From the NCBI GenBank assembly GCA_030605565.1, contig JAUWIB010000089.1, positions 12,197-76,196 on the forward strand: DNA of 64,000 nt, read 5' to 3'. The notes beneath the pieces were generated by a model. It was not told where the DNA came from. It did not search any database and saw nothing but the letters and a program-made list of their open reading frames with translations. Shown in pieces: positions 49,515 to 58,924 of this stretch; the stretch's first letter is position 1; each line of letters opens with the position of its first letter. This stretch comes from a bacterium. Lineage in GTDB: Bacteria; Zixibacteria; MSB-5A5; GN15; FEB-12. The position numbers were made by a program, and so were the translations under genes.

Positions 49515-52460
49515 ATGAATCTTTCCTCACCAAAGATCAGTTTTGATCATCGGCTGCTGGCGATTGAAGAGCAATTTCGCCAGAGGAAGTATCAACACTC
49601 GGCGCGCGAGTTACGCCAACTAGGCGAGCACGAGTTTGAACCGCGCGCGCATGAAGTTGGTCTGTTTCTGTTGCTGTCTGCTGACGGCAGCTTCTCTGAG
49701 GGTAACTACAAGAGAGCGGTAGAAGATGGGCTTCGGGCGGCCAAAATTCTGGCCGGATTCCCGCTGAATCGACGATATGGCAGAGTACAGTTAGTGCTTT
49801 CTAAAGCCTACCTAATGCTCGGTGATCTGAAGAATGCCGAAATGAGGGGTCGTGACGCTGTAGCGGCCTACCGAAGGGCCAACGAAATGGATGGCCAGGT
49901 GGATTCGTTCAACCAGTTGGCTGGTATCGCATACTTGCGCTGTGATTACGCTGCGGTCGTCGGGTTTCTTGAGAATGCACTGGCTATGACCGGCGACAAT
50001 CCGCGCAAAGTGGCGCAGTTGACCGGTAACCTTGGTCGTACTCGCATTCGCACCGGGCAGTGGGCTCAGGCCGAACTGGACCTGAGCGGCTCGGTGAAAT
50101 ACAGCCATGACAACCATGAGGAGATCTCGGAGGCAATGAATCTGCTGTCGCTGGGACTTCTTCAGGTGCACCGTCGCCAGTTCGTGGTGGCCCAACGTAG
50201 TCTTGACGCGGCGTTAGAAATCGTTAACCGGCTCGACCTGAAGTATGAGCGCGTTGTCTATCTGGAGTACTCCGGTGAGTTGGCCTTCGAGAGAGGGGAC
50301 ATGTTCAAGGCCAAGGCGATCCTCAGCGAGGCGTATCGCCACGGTCTCACTCTTTCGTCGTCGTCGTCGCTGGTATCTCAGTCGGGACGCCAGTTGGCCG
50401 ATGTAGAGTTGGCTCTCGACAATTTCGACGAAGCCATGAAATACGCCCAGATAGCGCTGGAGACAGCGCTGCAACTGGGGGAGAGACTGGAGATCGGTCT
50501 GTCGCGCGCTGTGATTGCGCGTGTTTTCACTGTCCAGGCGGATTTCGAGTCGGCCCTGGAACAAGGCCGGTTGGCGCTTGAAGTTCTCAGAGGGATTGGT
50601 GACCCGTACCAACTGGGGCGTACCCTGTTGGTGTTTTCAGATATCTGTCTGGCCGCCCAGACTGAGGAAAAGGATAAGATACGAGCGGCCCTTGATGAGG
50701 CCCACCGCATATTCAGGAGGTTGAAGCTCAACTACTGGATGAGTGAAGCTAACTTCAAGGCGGGTGTATTCGCCTGTCAGTGTGGCGAGTTGGCTGCTGG
50801 ATTCCGCAAGCTCAGCCGGGCTGAGAAGGGGTTCGCATCGTTGGGCGCCAACACCAGGGTTAAAGCGGTCGCAAACTACTTGCGCACTTTATCGGAGCAG
50901 GCCGTGGCTCTGTCGATCTCGGACGACAACGAATTCAAGATTTTCGGCAACCTGATCAGCCCGGACGAGTTGACCGATCTCCAATCGTCACAGATGGAGG
51001 CGATCCTGTCGGTCTTGTTGGAGAAGACAGGTGGTGAACGAGCACTGATTTACGTGCCGGGTTCTTCAGATAATCCGGTGATTGCCTCCTTCCCGCTCGA
51101 GGGTGGGCAGGCCAAACGATTCACTGGTAGTCTTGGCGGTCTGTTGGGCGAGGAGATTGCCGTTGACCGGCCCACCTTGCTTTTGGACTGCCGCCGCGAT
51201 CCCTTCATCAACGAACTATTCACGGATGTAGCTGATGTTGTGGCCAGTGTTATTGTTGTGCCTTTCAAAACCAGCGATGGCTCGGCTGGGTATCTCTATC
51301 TCGATCGATTGTCACAGGACAACTGTCTTAATCCGTTCAATCAGACACAACTGAATTTTGCGGTCGGCTTTTCCGATCTCATTGCGTTCAAATGGACCGA
51401 GATCCAGAAGAATAAGCTATTAGAGGACAACCGAAGGCTCAAGAGTCAATTGATGGAGGAAGCCGCCTTCCCGAACATCATCACCGGCAATCCCGAGATG
51501 CTGAGAATGCTGTCCCAGGTGAGGCAGGTGGTAGACTCCAACATTTCGCTTTCTATCGAGGGTGAGACCGGCTGTGGCAAAGATCTACTGGCCCGAGCCA
51601 TTCACTACAATTCAATTCGGAAGAACCATCGCTTCATCACGGTTAACTGTGCCGCTCTTCCGGAGTCACTTCTGGAGTCGGAGTTGTTCGGTTATCGCAA
51701 AGGGGCGTTTACGGGCGCCGACCGTGATAAGCCAGGCTTATTCGAGGAAGCCGACGGCGGCACCTTCTTCCTTGACGAAATAGCCGACATGCCGCTCAGT
51801 ATCCAGGCCAAGGTGTTGCGGATACTTGAGGAAAAAGAAATCGTTCGACTGGGTGAAACTACACCGCGTCAGGTCGATGTGCGCATCGTGTCGGCCACCA
51901 ACAAGGATCTGAAAGAACAGATGAGCGCCGGTCTGTTTCGACAGGATCTGTACTATCGGTTGTCCGCGATGACTTTCAGACTGCCGCCGTTGCGCGAACG
52001 TAGAGAAGATATTCTGTTATTGGTCGAACACTTCCTCGCTCCCACGGGCAGGAGATTGTCGCCGGAAGTGGTGAAGGCATTAGTGGATTACAATTGGCCG
52101 GGTAACGTGCGTGAACTCGACAATGAAATCAAGAAGCTGGTGCTGTTGTCCGGTGATGATGAGGAAATCACCTCCCATCTCCTGTCGAGCAAGATTGGCG
52201 AACAGTCTTCTGTTGCTAACGGAGGCAATGGTGACGGCCGGGCGGCTGCGGCGCCTCCGGATGTTATTGAGTTCAACGAACGGTTTGGCCTTTACGACTA
52301 CCTGGCCGACCATGAAAAGACTTTCATCCTGAAGGCTTTGATGGCCAAACGCGGCGTCAAGAAACACGCTGCCGCATTCTTGAATATCCCCGAATCGACC
52401 TTGCGTCTCAAGATCAAGCAGTACGATATCGACCTCGGCCAATTCAAACGTCCTTCCTGA
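49515..52460 (+). CDS. Sigma54-dependent transcriptional activator with N-terminal TPR-like and GAF-like sensor regions
   Basis: The AAA+ core has GETGCGKDLLARAIH, ESELFGYRKGAFTGA and FFLDEIADMP. The C-terminal Fis-type HTH reads AAAFLNIPESTLRLKIKQY. About 450 aa of helical repeats and a GAF-like block (VVPFKTSDGSAGYLYLDR) precede it. There is no receiver domain. Confidence 0.9.
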   Translation: MNLSSPKISFDHRLLAIEEQFRQRKYQHSARELRQLGEHEFEPRAHEVGLFLLLSADGSFSEGNYKRAVEDGLRAAKILAGFPLNRRYGRVQLVLSKAYLMLGDLKNAEMRGRDAVAAYRRANEMDGQVDSFNQLAGIAYLRCDYAAVVGFLENALAMTGDNPRKVAQLTGNLGRTRIRTGQWAQAELDLSGSVKYSHDNHEEISEAMNLLSLGLLQVHRRQFVVAQRSLDAALEIVNRLDLKYERVVYLEYSGELAFERGDMFKAKAILSEAYRHGLTLSSSSSLVSQSGRQLADVELALDNFDEAMKYAQIALETALQLGERLEIGLSRAVIARVFTVQADFESALEQGRLALEVLRGIGDPYQLGRTLLVFSDICLAAQTEEKDKIRAALDEAHRIFRRLKLNYWMSEANFKAGVFACQCGELAAGFRKLSRAEKGFASLGANTRVKAVANYLRTLSEQAVALSISDDNEFKIFGNLISPDELTDLQSSQMEAILSVLLEKTGGERALIYVPGSSDNPVIASFPLEGGQAKRFTGSLGGLLGEEIAVDRPTLLLDCRRDPFINELFTDVADVVASVIVVPFKTSDGSAGYLYLDRLSQDNCLNPFNQTQLNFAVGFSDLIAFKWTEIQKNKLLEDNRRLKSQLMEEAAFPNIITGNPEMLRMLSQVRQVVDSNISLSIEGETGCGKDLLARAIHYNSIRKNHRFITVNCAALPESLLESELFGYRKGAFTGADRDKPGLFEEADGGTFFLDEIADMPLSIQAKVLRILEEKEIVRLGETTPRQVDVRIVSATNKDLKEQMSAGLFRQDLYYRLSAMTFRLPPLRERREDILLLVEHFLAPTGRRLSPEVVKALVDYNWPGNVRELDNEIKKLVLLSGDDEEITSHLLSSKIGEQSSVANGGNGDGRAAAAPPDVIEFNERFGLYDYLADHEKTFILKALMAKRGVKKHAAAFLNIPESTLRLKIKQYDIDLGQFKRPS

Positions 52461-52605
52461 CAGTTAACGGCAGTCGCCCTGGGGTTGTCTCATAAGCTCG
52501 TGGTCCGCGTACGTCCTTGTGCGCCGGCCTTTGGATGCCGGCGCGGTAGACTCAGACGTCCACCGCGCACAGGGCGAGTGTCATTTCGGCGAAAGCCGGA
52601 ATCCG

Positions 52606-52712
52606 GTAGGTCAGGATCCTTGTGATCCTGACAGGCAAGGTAGCAAGCTACTGTTGGCGTCAGGTTCCAAGGATGTAGAGGATCATGAGATCCTTGGAAC
52701 CTGACCTACAAG
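52606..52712. repeat. Two adjacent family B hairpins; the second is the inverse of 35694-35748 with a 17-nt loop insertion
   Basis: The first is gtaggtcaggatccttgtgatcctgac. The second is ggcaaggtagcaagctactgttggcgtcaggttccaagga[tgtagaggatcatgaga]tccttggaacctgacctacaag. Confidence 0.85.
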
Positions 52713-52761
52713 ATGTCGAAACCGCCCTTCGGCTGCGCTCAAGACAGGCTTGGTTTCGACC
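52706..52761. repeat. Family C element
   Basis: ctacaagatgtcgaaaccgcccttcggctgcgctcaagacaggcttggtttcgacc. Confidence 0.75.
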
Positions 52762-52894
52762 TATGATTCCTCCGCTCAGGGTGAGGTGTGGAGCGCAATG
52801 TTGAAGGCGGTCATGGTTCGCGGCAGTATAATCTGTTACTACCAACACACATAACGTGACTGAGTCGCAGGCAAATTTTTTTCTCAACTAACAG

Positions 52895-52922
52895 TTGACA
52901 TTCGGTTGGATTCTGGTATAAT
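52895..52922 (+). promoter_or_regulatory. Near-consensus sigma70-type promoter with extended -10
   Basis: TTGACA (52895-52900), a 16-nt spacer, then TGgTATAAT (TATAAT at 52917-52922). An A/T-rich tract (aaattttttt) lies upstream. Confidence 0.5.
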
Positions 52923-52928
52923 AACGGT

Positions 52929-53006
52929 TGACGAGGACTTGGGTAGATCGTCCACTGGTAGCTCCCTAGCCCCCTCTACCATCGATCTACCCGCCCTCTT
53001 TTTTTT
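52929..53006 (+). ncRNA. Candidate ~75-nt small RNA: one extended hairpin plus U8 tail
   Basis: Paired segments are GAGG(52933-36)/CCTC(52995-98), GGGTAGATCG(52941-50)/CGATCTACCC(52983-92) and TGGTAG(52956-61)/CTACCA(52976-81). The apical loop is C-rich (ctccctagccccct). T8 lies at 52999-53006. There is no ORF with an RBS. Confidence 0.3.
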
Positions 53007-53126
53007 GTGCCCCCAGTTCTTCTGTCTCCCCAACCCGGCCGCATCACAGAGCCGACCGTCGTCTATGGCTGAACTCAACATAACAGCAGTGACTGTCAGA
53101 CCGTGTCAGTCAAAGTTGTTCGCATC

Positions 53127-53148
53127 CGGCAGATGTGGGCATCTGCCG
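53127..53148. repeat. Family A palindrome, one mismatch
   Basis: cggcagatgtgggcatctgccg, with gggc in place of ggac. Confidence 0.85.
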
Positions 53149-53435
53149 TTCACCTAGTTTTTTGTGAGGCGGGATCCTTGCGATCCTGCCGAAACGTCTG
53201 TTTTCCCACAACGCCTTAACTCGAATCGCAGGGTCACAATCCGCCTGGGCGGATCAGGACCCTGCGAAACGGCTTTATGACACAGTCTGGCAGTCGAAGG
53301 GTGGCGTACCCTGTGGGCGGATACTGCGTACCCTGACTTCACAACCGAAGTGCAACAACCTACTAAGGGTTAATCAGACTCGCATTCGGCTGAGCCGGGC
53401 TTGCGTTGTGCCCCGATCATGTGTAATATGTTGCC

Positions 53436-54242
53436 ATGTCCAGGCTGCTCTTCTATCGTCAGTTCGCGTGTGACCCGCATTACAACATGGCCGTCGATGA
53501 GTGGTTGTTTGATCGGGCGCGCAATGCCCCGGGGTCGTTGTTCGTTCGCTTGTACAGTTGGGCTGAGGGAGCGATCACTTTCGGAGTCAATCAGGACATG
53601 GAGCGTGCCTTCGATTCTTCCCAACTGAACGGTACGCCGGTGATACGTCGCGTAACCGGCGGGCGTGCTCTCTATCATGACTGCTCTGAGCTAACCTACA
53701 GCATTGCCGTCAATCTCTCCGGGTGGCATGGTTACGAATGGGCGACGGGTAGGTCGAGTTTCTACCGCGCCGTGGCTGAGGCTCTGGCCGAATTCGTGAG
53801 AGTCATGGGCAAAGACGCAGGCTACTGTCGCCGTTCGGCTGAGAGTAATTCGTGTTCTGATTTTTTCCACAAGGCGGCCTGCTTTGCGTCGGTTTCACGT
53901 TATGAGGTGTTGGCCGAAGGCGGGAAGATTGTGGCTTCGGCGGCGCGCCGAATTGAGGATACCATCTTGCAGCACGGATCGATCAAACTTGACGGCGTGG
54001 CGCAGCATCCGGCGCTCTACTACCCGGCGGTTGACGGCCTCTCGCAATCGGTTTGTTTGCAGCCGCTTAGCGGCCCGCGTTGGGAACTGGCGTGTGATAT
54101 CTTCCCCAATGTGCTTGGTCGCCATCTCGGCATTGATCTGCGGCGGGGTGAGTTCGACCTTCAGGAGTCGGCCGAGTTGGAAGGCCGAGCCAGGTTGGTT
54201 AGTGAAACAGCTCTTAGGCAGAGGATTTTATTAAACAGTTGA
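53436..54242 (+). CDS. Lipoate/octanoate-protein ligase family protein (BPL_LplA_LipB)
   Basis: NMAVDEWLF, VRLYSWAEGAITFG, IRRVTGGRALYHD and KIVASAARRIEDTILQHGSIKLD are present. Confidence 0.8.
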   Translation: MSRLLFYRQFACDPHYNMAVDEWLFDRARNAPGSLFVRLYSWAEGAITFGVNQDMERAFDSSQLNGTPVIRRVTGGRALYHDCSELTYSIAVNLSGWHGYEWATGRSSFYRAVAEALAEFVRVMGKDAGYCRRSAESNSCSDFFHKAACFASVSRYEVLAEGGKIVASAARRIEDTILQHGSIKLDGVAQHPALYYPAVDGLSQSVCLQPLSGPRWELACDIFPNVLGRHLGIDLRRGEFDLQESAELEGRARLVSETALRQRILLNS

Positions 54243-54310
54243 CTACTTTCGGGAGTCTATGGGTGTGGCGCAAGACATTGCGGCAGGCAACGGTTGGCGG
54301 CAAAAACCGC

Positions 54311-54340
54311 TTGACTTTGCCGCCGTCGATGAGCTATTAT
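54311..54340 (+). promoter_or_regulatory. Candidate sigma70-type promoter of the TBDR-like/PorV-like/lipoprotein operon
   Basis: TTGACT (54311-16), an 18-nt spacer, then TATTAT (54335-40). It leaves a leader of about 190 nt. Confidence 0.35.
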
Positions 54341-54533
54341 AGTTGCTTGAAAGCGGATTCCGGTATGGACAAGATGCCCCGGGAATCCTTAGAGTTTGGA
54401 GAGTTCAGGCGGACCGGTAGGTAACGGATCAGGACTGAATCGTTCGATTCTCTCACTGCACAGGGTCGGCTTGGAATCTGATATTATTGGTTGGGAAACA
54501 AGTAGAGTCGTCTCTGCATATATCGTAGGAGGA

Positions 54534-57500
54534 ATGGTAATGCCTTTCGGGCCCAGGAAGTTTTTGATTTCGTTCGTGGTCCTGGTGCTGGCAATAGCGA
54601 TCGGGCCAGTGAACCTTTACGCAGCGGCTGTGGGACAGATTAAGGGGACTATCACTGACAAGGAAACCGGCGAGTTGATTCCCGGTGCATCGGTCATGGT
54701 TGTCGGCCTTGAGGGGGTCGGTGCAATGACCGACTTCGATGGCAAGTTTATTATCCGCCGCATGGAGCCGGGCAAGTACACCGTGCGCATCACGCACCTC
54801 AAGTACAACACTTTGGAGGTCACCGATGTCGAAGTCAAGTCTGATCTGACTGTTGAGGTGACCCAGGCGCTGGAGAAGAAGATCGCTGAGTTAGACAAAA
54901 CCATCACTGTCAGAGGTGAACGGGACATTATCGAGAAATTCCAGACCTCCAACCAGGTCACCATCTCCAAAGAACAGATTATGTCTCAGCCGGTCACTTC
55001 GGTGGATGAGTTGCTGACGCAGGTGGCCGGTGTGGTCACCAACGCCTCCGGTGAGATATTCATCCGAGGTGGTCGCGCCGGTGAGGTTGCGTACATCGTT
55101 GATGGTGTGCCGATCGGCGATCCGCTGGGTGGTCTGGGAGAGATGGGCGCCAATCTTTCGTTGGTTTCCGGTTCGATTCAGGAGTTCACGGTGATTAAGG
55201 ACGGGTTTGATCCGGAGTACGGCAACGCCCTTTCCGGTATCGTCAGGATCACTACGCAAACCGGATCGAGAGACAACACCCGGATTAACATGCAGTTCAT
55301 CACCGATGATTTCGGCGACAAGTCCCTTAACAAGTATTCACGTAACCACGATTACGTGCGATTTTCCGTAAGCGGTCCGGACCCGATTTTCAAGAACAAG
55401 ATTCTTCCGGCTTTGGGTTTGAGCTATATGGAGGATAAGGAGCTTACGTACTACTTCTACGGTGAGGTGGACAAGGATGACGGTATCCATCAATACGAAT
55501 CTTACGACACGCCGATAACTCGTCGGAACTACGGATCGTTCAACCTTCTTGGGTTTGACATTCCGGAGCGTAAGAACAACAAGTACTCCTATGTGAGCAA
55601 CCTCAGGTTCCGCCCCTTGCAGAATTTGAGGTTTATCCTTTCGTACAGGAACACTCAGACGCGGTGGACTCATTTCAATTGGAACTATCGTTACTCACCT
55701 AACACTGCACCGGTGCAGTCGAATCGCTGGGAGATATTGTCGCTGGAGGTTTCGCAGTCTGTCTCCCGTAACATTAGCTACGAGGCGGTTCTGTCCTATT
55801 CGAAGAACAGCGTGACCCGTAAGCCGGGTGATCCCAACAATCCGGGGCATGGACTGGACCCCGATGAATTCCGTCTGAACTCGGAGTGGGAGGACTTTGA
55901 TGATCGTAACCACAATGGTGTTTATGATGCCCCGGAGCCGATCATCAACCTGTTCCCGGACACGGCTATCTACGGATTCGATTTCACCGGTCCCGCCTAT
56001 ACTTTCGGTGAGGAGTCGCTCTGGGAAATCAACCAGCAGGGCGGTTTCGCCTTTCCATCTGATTTCCGTTTCAATGACAACGGTATTATCGACAACCTTG
56101 AGGGTGAGCCGTTTATCGACCTGAATGGGAACGGTGTTTGGGACCAGGGAGATTTCCTCAGGGATAAGAACGGTAATGGGTTGCTCGACGATGATCGTAT
56201 CAGCTACATCAACAACCGTCTGCCCGAGCCGTACATTGATGGTGATTCGATCGTAGGTGAGGATTTCAACGATATTAACGGCAACAACATCTATGATCCC
56301 GGCATCGACCTGTTTATCATGTCGGTCGGTGATGATAACCAGGACCTCAACGACAATGGTAAGCACGACGGTCCGCTGGATCGCTGGGAGCCGCGTATTC
56401 CGTACATCGACCGGAACGGCGACGGTATCTACAACCCTCCTAATGAGCGTTACGATCAAGGCGAACCGTTTACCGATGTGAACGGCAACGGTCGCTATGA
56501 TTACGGTGGTTCTTCGAATTTCCTGAACCCGGGCAATTACGACGAGACAGCAATGTGGCACTATCACAACACGAACACCTATCGGTTGGAGGCCAAGGTG
56601 TTCTGGCAGTTGGGCTCTCACGAGCTCAAGGGTGGTGTTGCGATGCAGGCCAACGAATACGACTACGAAGAAATCGAAAAGCCATACTATCCTTACAGTG
56701 GACGCGACGACGGTGGGCCGTACCCGGGGCGCGGCTCTTTCCGGGATATGTTCCATTATGAGCCGTACCAGGGTACGGTGTACTTCCGCGATAAGCTGGA
56801 GTACGGATCGATGATCGCGTCGCTGGGTTTCCGGTGGGATTTCTTCCTGCAGGATCGCTATGGTTTGGTGGAAGTGGCCAAGCAGGATGATCTGGGCTCC
56901 GGTGTGATCTTGGGTGACCGTCAAAAGTTCTCACCGCGTATTGGTTTCTCCTATCCGATCTCCGACAAGGCCAAAATCCACTTCAACTACGGGCACTTCT
57001 TCCAGCTTCCTTTACTTGAGCGGATGTACCGTCGGAATACTTCCTCGGTGGCTCAGAACGTTGTGATCGGTAACTATAACCTCGATTATCAAAAGACCAT
57101 TCAGTATTCGTTTGGTGTCAAGTACGCGATGTCTGAGAACTATTCGCTGGATGCCCAGGGCTATTTCAAGGACGAATTTGATAAGATTAACTCTGCGCAG
57201 GTTCGGGTTGGTGGTTTGACGCGTCAGCAGTATCAGAACAGTGACTATGGCCGCAGCCGTGGCTTTGAATTCACTCTCGAAAAGCGAGGCGGCGGTTATG
57301 TCAATGGTCAGTTGAGTTACACCTATGCTTTTGCTTTCGGCAAGGCGTCGCAGACTAACCAGAACTACATGAGCGACTTCGAACTCTCACGTGAGCCTCT
57401 CTCCGAGTCGGCGCTCAATAACGATATTCGGCACCGTATTAGTGGCAATATTCAGGTGTTTGTACCCAGGACGGTCAAACCCCGCCTGTTCGGTTTGCCC

Positions 57501-57881
57501 ATCCCCAACGGCTGGACGCTGGCTCTCAATTGTATAATCGAGAGTGGGCGTCCTTTTACTCCTGACCGGTCGTACCCGAACCTGACGTTGACAACCGGTG
57601 AGGACATCCAAACCAACTCGATGCGCAAGCCGGGTATTTTCAATATCGACGTCCGTTTCGCCAAGGATTTCGAGTTCATCGGGATCGATTACAGTGTGAT
57701 TATGTGGGTAGAGAATATCTTTGACAGCCGCAATGTCAATACAGTTTACAACAAAACTGGTCGACCTGATACCCGGCAGAATCAGAGTCAGGTCATCAAG
57801 GGAGGCACGCCCTACGACCTAAACCCATACAACTGGGATTACGGTCGGCAGATCCGCCTGGGACTTGAGGTGAACCTGTAA
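54534..57881 (+). CDS. TonB-dependent-receptor-like outer membrane protein (CarboxypepD_reg, plug and barrel) with a large Asp-rich loop insertion
   Basis: It has a signal peptide and a CarboxypepD_reg-like domain (IKGTITDKETGELIPGASVMVVG...GKYTVRITHLKY). The plug reads FIRGGRAGEVAYIVDGVPIGDP and DPEYGNALSGIVRITT. A long barrel follows. The start is ATG at 54534 or 54540, after TAGGAGG. The track ORF starts at 54396. Confidence 0.85.
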   Translation: MVMPFGPRKFLISFVVLVLAIAIGPVNLYAAAVGQIKGTITDKETGELIPGASVMVVGLEGVGAMTDFDGKFIIRRMEPGKYTVRITHLKYNTLEVTDVEVKSDLTVEVTQALEKKIAELDKTITVRGERDIIEKFQTSNQVTISKEQIMSQPVTSVDELLTQVAGVVTNASGEIFIRGGRAGEVAYIVDGVPIGDPLGGLGEMGANLSLVSGSIQEFTVIKDGFDPEYGNALSGIVRITTQTGSRDNTRINMQFITDDFGDKSLNKYSRNHDYVRFSVSGPDPIFKNKILPALGLSYMEDKELTYYFYGEVDKDDGIHQYESYDTPITRRNYGSFNLLGFDIPERKNNKYSYVSNLRFRPLQNLRFILSYRNTQTRWTHFNWNYRYSPNTAPVQSNRWEILSLEVSQSVSRNISYEAVLSYSKNSVTRKPGDPNNPGHGLDPDEFRLNSEWEDFDDRNHNGVYDAPEPIINLFPDTAIYGFDFTGPAYTFGEESLWEINQQGGFAFPSDFRFNDNGIIDNLEGEPFIDLNGNGVWDQGDFLRDKNGNGLLDDDRISYINNRLPEPYIDGDSIVGEDFNDINGNNIYDPGIDLFIMSVGDDNQDLNDNGKHDGPLDRWEPRIPYIDRNGDGIYNPPNERYDQGEPFTDVNGNGRYDYGGSSNFLNPGNYDETAMWHYHNTNTYRLEAKVFWQLGSHELKGGVAMQANEYDYEEIEKPYYPYSGRDDGGPYPGRGSFRDMFHYEPYQGTVYFRDKLEYGSMIASLGFRWDFFLQDRYGLVEVAKQDDLGSGVILGDRQKFSPRIGFSYPISDKAKIHFNYGHFFQLPLLERMYRRNTSSVAQNVVIGNYNLDYQKTIQYSFGVKYAMSENYSLDAQGYFKDEFDKINSAQVRVGGLTRQQYQNSDYGRSRGFEFTLEKRGGGYVNGQLSYTYAFAFGKASQTNQNYMSDFELSREPLSESALNNDIRHRISGNIQVFVPRTVKPRLFGLPIPNGWTLALNCIIESGRPFTPDRSYPNLTLTTGEDIQTNSMRKPGIFNIDVRFAKDFEFIGIDYSVIMWVENIFDSRNVNTVYNKTGRPDTRQNQSQVIKGGTPYDLNPYNWDYGRQIRLGLEVNL

Positions 57882-57904
57882 GCAGCTCAATGTGAAGAAT
57901 AGAT

Positions 57905-58924
57905 ATGAATGACACAATAGATGAGGATGAAATGCTTCTGAAACACAATAGATCGCTGCCACTGAGACCGCCCAGGTATTTAAGAACAGCGCTTCTCGGA
58001 CTGGTATTGCTTTGTATTGGCGTCGCCTGGATGCCTCACAACGCCTTGGCTCAGGCCAAAGTAGGCACTACCGGCGCCCAGTTCCTGGAGCTTGGCGTCT
58101 CGGCGCGGGCGATGGGTATGGCGGAGGCCTTTACAGCGGTCACGGACGACATCATGGCGGTATACTACAACCCGGCCGGTCTTACCTCGCTCTATGGCCG
58201 TGAGGTGGCATTCACTTACATCGACATGCCGGCCGATGTCGGCTACGGTTTCGGTGCTATTGGTCTGCCGCTGGAATCAATCGGCGGTGTCCTGGGGATA
58301 AGCGCGTACGGCTTGTCCTCCGGTGAAATGATCGAACGCACTTGGAGCAAGGGCCAACAAGAGGGTACCGGGCGGACTTTCGGATGGAACGACTTCGCTA
58401 TGGGTGTCAGCTATGGCCGGTATCTGACCGACCGGTTTTCGGTGGGTTTCACGGTCAAGTTTGTCGGTCAATTCGTTCACGACTACAGCGCCAGCGGTTG
58501 GTGTGCTGATGTCGGCACTATGTACGACACCGGCCACCGCGGCTTCAGAATCGCTATGATGATCAGTAATTTCGGGCCGGATATGACTATGATCAGCCAG
58601 TCCTATCCGTTACCGATCAACTTCAGGTTTGGTGGTTGCATCAACCTGGTTGAACAGGCGGATCACCTGGTGACCTTCGCGGCCGAGGGCTCCCACCCCT
58701 CGGACAACCTCGAGAAGTACAACACCGGTCTGGAATATACCTTTCGGGACCGTTTCTCACTGCGCGCGGGGCGCCGCTTCAACTATGACGAAGACGGCTT
58801 CACGGCCGGCGGCGGTCTTGCCTTGCCGTTTGGAGAAGAGAGTGAGATTCGTATCGATTACGCCTTCCAGGATTTCGGAATCCTGACGCAGGTTCACCGT
58901 TTCAGTATGGCCTTTGCGTTTTAG
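57905..58924 (+). CDS. PorV/PorQ-family outer membrane beta-barrel protein
   Basis: After the signal peptide comes GTTGAQFLELGVSARAMGMAEAFTAVTDDIMAVYYNPAGL, the signature N-terminal block of PorV/PorQ-type barrels. The protein ends in ...FSMAFAF. Confidence 0.7.
   Translation: MNDTIDEDEMLLKHNRSLPLRPPRYLRTALLGLVLLCIGVAWMPHNALAQAKVGTTGAQFLELGVSARAMGMAEAFTAVTDDIMAVYYNPAGLTSLYGREVAFTYIDMPADVGYGFGAIGLPLESIGGVLGISAYGLSSGEMIERTWSKGQQEGTGRTFGWNDFAMGVSYGRYLTDRFSVGFTVKFVGQFVHDYSASGWCADVGTMYDTGHRGFRIAMMISNFGPDMTMISQSYPLPINFRFGGCINLVEQADHLVTFAAEGSHPSDNLEKYNTGLEYTFRDRFSLRAGRRFNYDEDGFTAGGGLALPFGEESEIRIDYAFQDFGILTQVHRFSMAFAF

Follow-up and report, generated by a model that had tools for sequence, protein, structure and literature searches.

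A lineage-restricted RNA of Zixibacteria, best read as a new small RNA gene that forms a terminator hairpin with a C-rich loop

Introduction

What is produced from a stretch of bacterial intergenic DNA in which a near-consensus sigma70-type promoter is followed directly by a long hairpin and a run of thymines? The question is raised by a locus from Zixibacteria, an FCB-related candidate phylum, that was analysed as part of a 64 kb stretch of DNA (the whole of which is referred to below as the window). A search of a paper library found no description of regulatory RNAs in Zixibacteria. The original prediction, made from the letters of the window, was that the unit is a candidate small RNA, belonging to no recognised family, which might regulate mRNAs in trans by pairing with their Shine-Dalgarno (SD) regions.

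The analysis described below favors reading the unit as a small RNA gene that is new and restricted to its lineage, the product of which would be a terminator hairpin with a C-rich loop and would represent a new family of a familiar type. Several of the features by which a small RNA gene is ordinarily recognised are present: the unit has its own conserved promoter and a GC-rich stem with a U-run, harbors no conserved open reading frame, and does not form part of the mRNA of a neighboring gene. To the more specific reading, in which a free-standing gene yields a product of approximately 77 nt that likely acts in trans through its C-rich loop, we would give an even chance of being correct.

Anatomy of the unit

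The unit comprises the following elements, numbered by their positions in the 64 kb window.

52876–52882, plus strand: T7 tract, about 12 nt 5' of the −35 box, in an UP-element-like position
52895–52922, plus strand: sigma70-type promoter, with the −35 box TTGACA at 52895–52900, a 16-nt spacer and the −10 box TATAAT at 52917–52922
52923–52932, plus strand: start region and short single-stranded 5' leader, with the predicted start at about 52929–52931
52933–52998, plus strand: 66-nt hairpin of three helices, 21 bp and a 14-nt loop, as given by RNA folding
52933–52936 with 52995–52998, plus strand: basal stem GAGG/CCUC, 4 bp
52940–52950 with 52983–52993, plus strand: middle stem UGGGUAGAUCG/CGAUCUACCCG, 11 bp including one U.G pair
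52956–52961 with 52976–52981, plus strand: apical stem UGGUAG/CUACCA, 6 bp
52962–52975, plus strand: apical loop CUCCCUAGCCCCCU, 14 nt, with two C-rich motifs, UCCC and CCCCCU
52999–53006, plus strand: U8 tail, directly abutting the hairpin, the predicted 3' end of the RNA

The promoter scores 12/12 in a consensus scan and carries, in addition, an extended −10 element (TG at 52914–52915, the last three bases of the spacer being TGg). A scan of both strands of the 64 kb window found no second site scoring 12/12 and two that reach 11/12; TTGACA-16-TGgTATAAT is thus, as had been claimed at the outset, the best sigma70 match that the window contains. The T7 tract may act as an UP element, to judge by its position. 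The spacing from the −10 box predicts that the RNA would start near 52929–52931, which in the window lineage would leave a 5' tail of 2–4 nt ahead of the hairpin and yield a transcript of 76–78 nt (about 77 nt); in other lineages the predicted RNA is about 85 nt in length.

The original prediction had described an imperfect hairpin of about 66 nt with three stem segments, and this structure was recovered by folding at 52933–52998, together with its 14-nt apical loop and the eight T's that follow it immediately. Two of the details that accompanied that description require correction, in that the three segments amount to 21 bp and not 20, and the hairpin begins 10 nt after the −10 box and not about 7. 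The helices are parted by two asymmetric internal loops, ACU/C and UCCAC/U. The minimum free energy (MFE) of the hairpin is −27.6 kcal/mol, and the folding z-score, calculated against dinucleotide shuffles, is −2.8 for positions 52925–53010 and −4.8 for the predicted 80-nt transcript. A single dominant hairpin fold, the same in all lineages, is predicted, and the loop CUCCCUAGCCCCCU is left unpaired in the predicted MFE and centroid structures of every one of them. The hairpin and the U8 tail have the anatomy of a canonical intrinsic terminator; the T8 at 52999–53006 is one of three T runs of at least eight in the window.

Genomic context

The unit is situated within a 976-nt intergenic gap, the surroundings of which are as follows.

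49515–52460: gene for a TPR-containing sigma54 enhancer-binding protein (EBP), upstream of the RNA
53401–53438, plus strand: promoter of the LplA-like gene, with TTGCGT at 53401–53406, 17 nt, TAATAT at 53424–53429, 6 nt, and the ATG at 53436
53436–54242, plus strand: LplA/LipB-family gene, 268 aa, downstream of the RNA

The ATG of the LplA-like gene lies 430 nt from the unit, exactly where the next gene had been placed by the original prediction. That gene is followed by one encoding a CarboxypepD_reg/Plug TonB-dependent receptor, and then by one encoding a FadL/PorV-like outer-membrane protein. The resulting four-gene cluster recurs in metagenome-assembled genomes (MAGs) labelled as Zixibacteria, and the adjacency of the activator and LplA-like genes is found in Ignavibacteriales MAGs as well. 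The intergenic region is rich in palindromic REP-like elements, and ARAGORN reported no tRNA or tmRNA in the window.

The LplA-like gene appears to constitute a transcription unit separate from the RNA, as indicated by its inferred promoter. The same promoter geometry is observed in L015, L017, L018, L020 and L022, and also in two relatives, L023 and L024, that lack the RNA. This geometry implies that the mRNA of the LplA-like gene would be leaderless, without an SD sequence.

Distribution of the RNA among relatives

Homologous loci were drawn from NCBI MAGs, JGI, ENA and Logan by a combination of a protein-anchored genome scan, an exact search of JGI metagenomes for a 22-nt core of the RNA, and exact-protein look-ups with homologues of the LplA-like protein. 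A covariance model (R1) built on the 77-nt RNA was applied to these loci, and the unit was found to be present in ten stretches in addition to the window, which correspond to nine independent loci (L019 being a duplicate of L018). The scores, for the window, L001, L002, L004, L014, L015, L016, L017, L018 (and hence L019), L020 and L022, all fall between 106 and 110 bits. Because the whole unit recurs syntenically in ten other stretches, its occurrence lies far beyond chance; conservation of the hairpin in relatives had been named in the original prediction as a test, and was borne out at nine independent loci.

R1 gave no match in L003, L005–L013, L021 and L023–L026; of these, L003 and L013 extend too short a way beyond the 5' end of the LplA-like gene to be informative. 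At the syntenic position of some close relatives (L021, L023, L024, L025 and L026) the RNA is missing, as judged with R1, and in L021, L023 and L024 it must be considered either dispensable or relocated. The LplA-like genes of those same three relatives are about as diverged from that of the window as are the LplA-like genes of relatives that bear the RNA.

The unit is present as a single copy in the window. Searches of the window and of every locus with R1 found no second copy of the RNA, and the 22-nt core is present once per contig, with only three loci, all syntenic, matched in the scan of JGI metagenomes. One 20-bit R1 match, at 909–957 of L015, was considered as a paralogue and rejected, since it corresponds to an opposite-strand terminator-like hairpin.

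At the positive loci the RNA occupies the intergenic gap that precedes the LplA-like gene and is co-directional with it, with the exception of L016, where a tRNA-Asp follows the RNA and no LplA-like gene is seen. Measured from the U-run to the ATG of the LplA-like gene, the distance is 66–68 nt in L017, L020 and L022, takes values of 245, 430 and about 880 nt at other loci, and exceeds 1.7 kb at its greatest; L002 carries an IS3-family element within this interval and retains an undisturbed RNA unit. The upstream neighbor is also variable: in L015 the activator gene is 6 kb away, beyond two genes on the opposite strand, and in L014 no activator sequence was detected within about 850 nt upstream of the RNA. 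Comparison of the loci shows the unit to be independent of its neighboring genes. A T-tract of 6–8 T was present in all 11 RNA-bearing stretches (window included), with differing flanks; in L014 this tract doubles as the run of U that closes a clear terminator hairpin of the upstream gene, and in L020 as that of a weaker, 5-bp one.

Conservation of the RNA

Sequence identity was calculated relative to the window over the 74 nt that extend from CGAGGA to the U-run. Across that length the RNA is 100% identical in L001, L002 and L004, 98.6% in L017 and L020, 97.3% in L015, L018 and L022, and 94.6% in L014. For the LplA-like gene of L014, L015, L017, L018, L020 and L022, in contrast, protein identity to the window is 48–62% and third-codon identity is 36–48%, which is near saturation. 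Such a degree of conservation is, by our own estimate, what would be expected of a tRNA, and the persistence of a near-invariant RNA beside near-saturated third codons implies that it plays an important cellular role.

The distribution of the changes is equally informative. Between CGAGGA and the U-run only five positions vary across the loci, two of which are in helices; no copy departs from the loop CUCCCUAGCCCCCU, and a U-run of seven to nine T is maintained throughout. Every copy possesses promoter hexamers (TTGACA or TTGACT, 16–17 nt, TATAAT or TATACT), the spacing of which is kept while the spacer sequence itself diverges between loci. The segment that leads from the −10 box to CGAGGA varies in both sequence and length between lineages (12–21 nt), and is A/U-rich in those other than the window's, as exemplified by CAGUUAAGA. 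With the RNA nearly invariant while the neighboring gene, the promoter spacer and the leader drift, selection appears to act on the transcribed part.

All 21 base pairs are standard in every sequence variant. An A-U to G.U change at 52947/52986 maintains pairing, and in L014 both sides of the pair at 52940/52993 have changed, from U.G to A-U; on the minus strand, most lineages would have C.A and A.C mismatches at these helix positions. Because the substitutions preserve pairing on the plus strand only, the constrained molecule is the plus-strand RNA. Covariation in the statistical sense is thin, amounting to one compensatory pair among four distinct variants, and 137 of 500 shuffles do equally well; since four variants yield weak statistics, the case for the RNA is founded on the pattern of conservation and not on covariation.

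Coding potential, repeats and known families

The original prediction reported that no reading frame preceded by a ribosome-binding site is present, and comparison of the loci confirms that none is conserved. Two open reading frames span the hairpin, at 52906–53157 on the plus strand and 52884–53081 on the minus strand, and in L001 a net 2-nt indel throws both out of frame; the sole start candidate within the RNA, a UUG, is CUG in L015, L018 and L022. The unit is therefore non-coding. It is likewise no member of a repeat family of the REP or MITE type, being present in a single copy in the window and, as far as its core is concerned, at syntenic loci only in JGI metagenomes; the concern that the promoter-like sequence might belong to such a family is thereby removed. 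An origin in a mobile element was rejected, since searches of viral contigs, phage records and plasmids returned no match to the unit.

Rfam models produced no match at gathering score in the whole window. At E values up to 10, searches of 1.1 kb and of 96 nt returned only chance miRNA and snoRNA hairpins, of 13–17 bits, and no covariance-model homology to RsaE, 6C, cuckoo or other described families was found in Rfam, in agreement with the initial impression that the hairpin belongs to no known RNA family.

A sigma54 promoter (GG-N10-GC) was sought by eye around the RNA as well as the LplA-like gene, and the idea was given up: the conserved CTTGCGTT is a −35 box and not a −12 element, and a further candidate at 54267–54283 has a spacing of 11 nt.

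Proposed mechanism and target searches

According to the mechanism that we propose, the near-consensus sigma70 promoter, with a T-tract ahead of it, would start transcription at about 52930, and the transcript would fold as a single 66-nt hairpin, the base of which, together with the U8, would terminate transcription. The hairpin would then have a dual role, as a terminator and as a scaffold on which the invariant unpaired loop CUCCCUAGCCCCCU is displayed. This loop, the candidate interaction surface of the RNA, would pair in trans with G-rich stretches in mRNA leaders, either SD-type sites (GGAG, GGGAG or AGGGGG) or G-tracts, and such pairing would alter the translation or the stability of the target. 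Pairing of the anti-SD kind is plausible by analogy with RNAs described elsewhere, and GGAGG-type SDs are used in this lineage, as in GUAGGAGGAAUGG ahead of the receptor gene.

Searches for targets covered the 64 kb window and the syntenic loci. A loop-duplex scan of both strands of the window detected no start-codon-proximal match above background, for which the mean was −7.1 kcal/mol and the 0.1% tail −23.4 kcal/mol. The translation-initiation region of the EBP gene gave only −11 kcal/mol. The best site in the cluster, at the start of the TonB-receptor gene, combines the SD AGGAGG with GGGCUCAGG (codons 4–6) at −16 to −19 kcal/mol; pairing there requires a 16-nt segment to be looped out, and a U-to-C change weakens the site in the window and L020, where the RNA has no compensating change. 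As its energy falls within the background, the receptor site is not significant and was rejected as a target.

Two other candidates were also set aside, namely a 12-bp match within the LplA-like coding region (53557–53572), which is not conserved elsewhere and falls within the background tail, and a UAGAUCG, common to the stem of the RNA and the initiation region of the TonB receptor, which is absent in the window. Of the two parts of the original prediction, then, the candidate small RNA has stood, and the trans-acting anti-SD regulator is a plausible proposal for which searches of the window and the syntenic cluster yielded no complementary sites beyond background.

A further property of the RNA bears on any such mechanism. 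Both arms of the three helices and both internal loops are near-invariant at a divergence that is near-saturating elsewhere, which is more than the needs of seed pairing would account for, and this suggests that the stems are subject to an additional constraint, for example recognition by a protein, processing, or another surface of interaction, and that the helix sequence may itself be read, be it by a protein, an RNase or a second RNA.

Sequence downstream of the U-run

In certain lineages the hairpin is followed by a second conserved segment.

53007–53165, plus strand: lineage-restricted downstream module, kept in the window group, L014 and L015

The module contains a C-rich unpaired block (GUGCCCCC...CUCCCCAACCC), then AUCACAGAGC, then a hairpin, GACUG-N11-CAGUC, that is predicted by folding and has a compensatory first pair in L015; its 3' end is formed by a second terminator-like hairpin with a T6 run, which ends at 53165 in the window, and a sequence scan places a terminator-like site at 53135–53153. 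No promoter belonging to the module itself was recognised. An origin of the C-rich block by partial duplication of the hairpin was considered and rejected, the similarity being marginal in L015 (p about 0.01) and unsupported in the window and L014. The module may arise by read-through, as a longer isoform, or may be a small RNA in its own right, and it is only tentatively counted as part of the unit; because the compact loci L017, L020 and L022 lack it, the hairpin RNA is regarded as the conserved core.

Alternative explanations

A role in cis, in which the hairpin would serve as a leader, attenuator or riboswitch of the LplA-like gene with read-through gated by a ligand or a protein, is suggested by the position of the RNA, which is upstream of that gene and on the same strand wherever both are seen, even where the upstream neighbor differs (L014 and L015), and by a gap of only 66–68 nt in L017, L020 and L022. 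We nevertheless judge it very improbable: the LplA-like gene possesses its own −35 and −10 boxes, 6 nt before its ATG, and these are unchanged in relatives that lack the RNA; without an SD, a read-through transcript of the gene would be poorly translated; the distance between the two is not fixed, extending from 66 nt to as much as 1.7 kb and beyond, and the intervening DNA can hold an IS3 element (L002) or additional terminators; and in L016 a tRNA-Asp occupies the place of the LplA-like gene. A riboswitch or attenuator in particular is contradicted by the 5' leader, which at about 2–14 nt is short and variable and has no space for an antiterminator, as well as by the lack of an alternative antiterminator structure in the single dominant fold. 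Close to negligible is the probability that the unit functions passively or as DNA, whether as a palindromic site for a protein (for example, a sigma54 activator), as a REP or MITE repeat, or as a terminator or insulator of the upstream gene. REP-like palindromes abound in the gap, nested inverted repeats could serve as dimer sites, and an EBP gene lies upstream; yet the element is single-copy, with its 22-nt core found once per contig and at the syntenic locus only in JGI metagenomes, its loop and bulges (which half-sites would not need) are conserved to the same extent as its arms, its substitutions preserve pairing solely as plus-strand RNA, and its promoter hexamers are kept at the proper spacing. 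The upstream gene, moreover, has a separate terminator-like hairpin ahead of the promoter in L014, and a weaker one in L020, and inspection revealed no GG-N10-GC sigma54 promoter nearby, with the activator gene being 6 kb away in L015.

Other explanations accept a small RNA and differ from the reading that we prefer in what the RNA does or where it ends. It is possible, though on the unlikely side, that pairing with mRNA is minor and that the RNA either binds or sequesters a protein or works within an RNP; the partner might be an RNase, a regulator, or an RNA-binding protein of the poly(C) or KH type. Essentially every nucleotide of the arms, of UCCAC/U and of the 14-nt loop is conserved while third codons of the neighbor are near random; at such divergence purely structural helices would be expected to covary, so that the helix sequence itself seems to be read; and no mRNA target in the window or the syntenic cluster rises above background. 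Against this must be set the neighboring genes, which encode an EBP, a ligase-like enzyme and outer-membrane proteins and thus no known RNA binder, the failure to see by eye any CsrA-type GGA repeat, K-turn tandem G.A, 6S or SRP feature (Rfam being likewise negative), and the example of 6C, a base-pairing RNA that is also highly conserved, at 91% among mycobacteria (PMC6486639). A structural RNA that is read by its sequence, as an RNP component, protein sponge or cofactor tied to the cluster of activator, LplA, TonB receptor and porin, and with direct selection on each nucleotide of its helices and loop, is in our estimation unlikely. Decidedly improbable is the proposal that the hairpin is merely the 5' domain of an RNA of about 235 nt that ends near 53165, with a leaky U8 giving rise to short and long isoforms. 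Sequence beyond the U-run is certainly kept in the window group, L014 and L015 (GCCCCC, a CUCCCYARCCC-like block, AUCACAGAGC, ACUGNCAG...UGUCAGU, and a hairpin with a T-run), within a module that has no recognised promoter, a largely unpaired C-rich block, and a terminator-like site at 53135–53153. However, the module is missing in L017, L020 and L022, where the LplA promoter follows about 25 nt after the U-run, and lies about 230 nt further off in L015; a GC-rich hairpin of 21 bp followed by U8 should stop transcription efficiently; and the similarity between block and loop is marginal (p about 0.01, and in L015 only). A short, free-standing RNA that ends at U8 and acts through its loop is the reading that we carry forward.

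Relation to known small RNAs

The finding by itself settles no long-standing question. It would supply a sharply defined example for Zixibacteria: the promoter is clean, the predicted product is 77 nt long, and MAGs can be scanned with the covariance model R1. If the proposed loop pairing is correct, the style of regulation in which a C-rich loop engages a G-rich target, described in Firmicutes, Actinobacteria and Helicobacter, would extend to an FCB-related lineage; if, instead, the invariance of the stem reflects recognition by a protein, a new RNA-protein pair would be indicated; and a structural RNA read by its sequence would amount to a new functional RNA class confined to a candidate phylum.

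Three described systems provide points of comparison. The 6C RNA (B11) of Actinobacteria binds G-rich ribosome-binding sites directly through C-rich loops, without a chaperone (PMC6486639), and its sequence is highly conserved over a large clade (PMC6486639; PMC10470900). Its activity involves more than one such loop, L2 and L3 (PMC6486639), unlike the present RNA, whose one hairpin places both of its C-runs in the same 14-nt loop. The present RNA also comes from FCB-related Zixibacteria, and no match to 6C was returned by Rfam at E values up to 10. The staphylococcal Rsa RNAs and RNAIII carry an unpaired UCCC in their most conserved regions, along with a classical terminator, and bind SDs to block initiation (PMC2790875); their expression is reported to be independent of Hfq (PMC2790875). 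The loop described here holds UCCC, like that of the RsaE/RoxS class, plus CCCCCU. The architectures are different, however, the Rsa helices varying between species where those of the present RNA are invariant, and no RsaE match was obtained in Rfam.

The third system, RepG of Helicobacter pylori, is a short, abundant and highly conserved intergenic small RNA encoded beside a regulator gene, and its seed, the C/U-rich loop of a terminator hairpin, base-pairs to G-rich sequence in the leader of an mRNA (PMC8295292). RepG comes from an unrelated phylum, has no sequence homology to the present RNA, and consists of two stem-loops as opposed to one long interrupted hairpin; a G-repeat target is known for it, and none was identified here in the window and syntenic loci. 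The likeness between the two lies in the placement of the candidate seed: as in RepG, the only conserved unpaired C-rich sequence of the present RNA is the loop of its terminator hairpin.

Gene neighborhood and gene starts

The window at 49515-58924 holds a cluster that encodes a TPR-containing sigma54 activator, an LplA/LipB-like ligase that comprises only the catalytic domain (about 270 aa), an Oar-type TonB-dependent receptor and a FadL/PorV-like porin. In the window and the homologous loci compared with it (L017-L028), this four-gene arrangement is kept in MAGs labelled as Zixibacteria, and adjacency of the activator and LplA genes is also displayed by MAGs from the Ignavibacteriales. No sigma54-type promoter was recognised in the intergenic regions of the cluster. 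Two promoter-like sequences are present:

53401-53438, including the ATG (+): putative, conserved promoter of the LplA-like gene, TTGCGT-17-TAATAT, with the ATG 6 nt past the -10 box
54311-54340 (+): conserved promoter of the receptor gene, TTGACT-18-TATTAT

Judged from its sequence, the LplA-like gene seems to have a leaderless transcript. No Shine-Dalgarno sequence precedes its ATG (window 53401-53438), and the same geometry from promoter to ATG recurs in most related loci, regardless of whether the small RNA is present. For the TonB-dependent receptor gene, the probable start codon is the ATG at 54540, which is accompanied by the Shine-Dalgarno sequence GUAGGAGGAAUGG, rather than the TTG at 54396 given by a mechanical ORF list. 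Its structured 5' UTR of roughly 190 nt, which is conserved across the Zixibacteria loci (GCGGAUUCC...GGGAAUCC; region 54311-54542, +), could be a cis-regulatory leader.

Non-coding sequence surrounding the small RNA

Immediately 3' of the U8 tail of the small RNA lies a second conserved non-coding module (53007-53165, +), in which the following elements are found:

within 53007-53165 (+): C-rich unpaired block, GUGCCCCC...GUCUCCCCAACCC
within 53007-53165 (+): AUCACAGAGC
about 53091-53111 (+): small hairpin, GACUG-N11-CAGUC
53129-53165 (+): terminator-like hairpin followed by T6

This module, which may represent either a read-through isoform of the small RNA or a second small RNA, is common to the window and to L001, L004, L014, L015 and L016; the module seen at window 53007-53165 is lacking from L017, L020 and L022, which also carry the small RNA.

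The remainder of the intergenic region is full of REP/MITE-like palindromes (window 52600-52715, 53168-53190 and 53226-53267), of which GTCAGGATCCTTGTGATCCTGAC and GGATCCTTGCGATCC are examples:

52659-52705: perfect inverted repeat of 16 bp
53226-53267: inverted repeat of 20 nt

Related palindromes (GCAGACGAGGACGTCTGC, CGTCCTTGTGCGCC) occupy the corresponding gap in L004, L018 and L023. When the close relative L016 is aligned by blastn, the segment 52633-52695 drops out; it takes in a large part of the inverted repeat located at 52659-52705.

In that relative (93% identity), the downstream module is followed by a tRNA-Asp(GUC) (389-461, -), and the remaining part of the gap and the LplA-like gene are replaced; the change is due either to a rearrangement at this site or to a join made in assembly. 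In L002 (one MAG), an IS3-family insertion sequence (474-1744), with orfA and orfB transposase frames that overlap, separates the small RNA from the LplA-like gene. Finally, in L015 the small RNA is separated from the downstream module by a terminator-like hairpin, AGAGGGGGCGAAAAG...CUUUUUGCCCUC followed by U7 (909-957, on the locus + strand, opposite to the RNA); read on the RNA strand, this segment is CGCCCCCUCUCCCUAGCCC..AUCGAUC, a sequence with weak similarity to the small RNA's loop and 3' arm.
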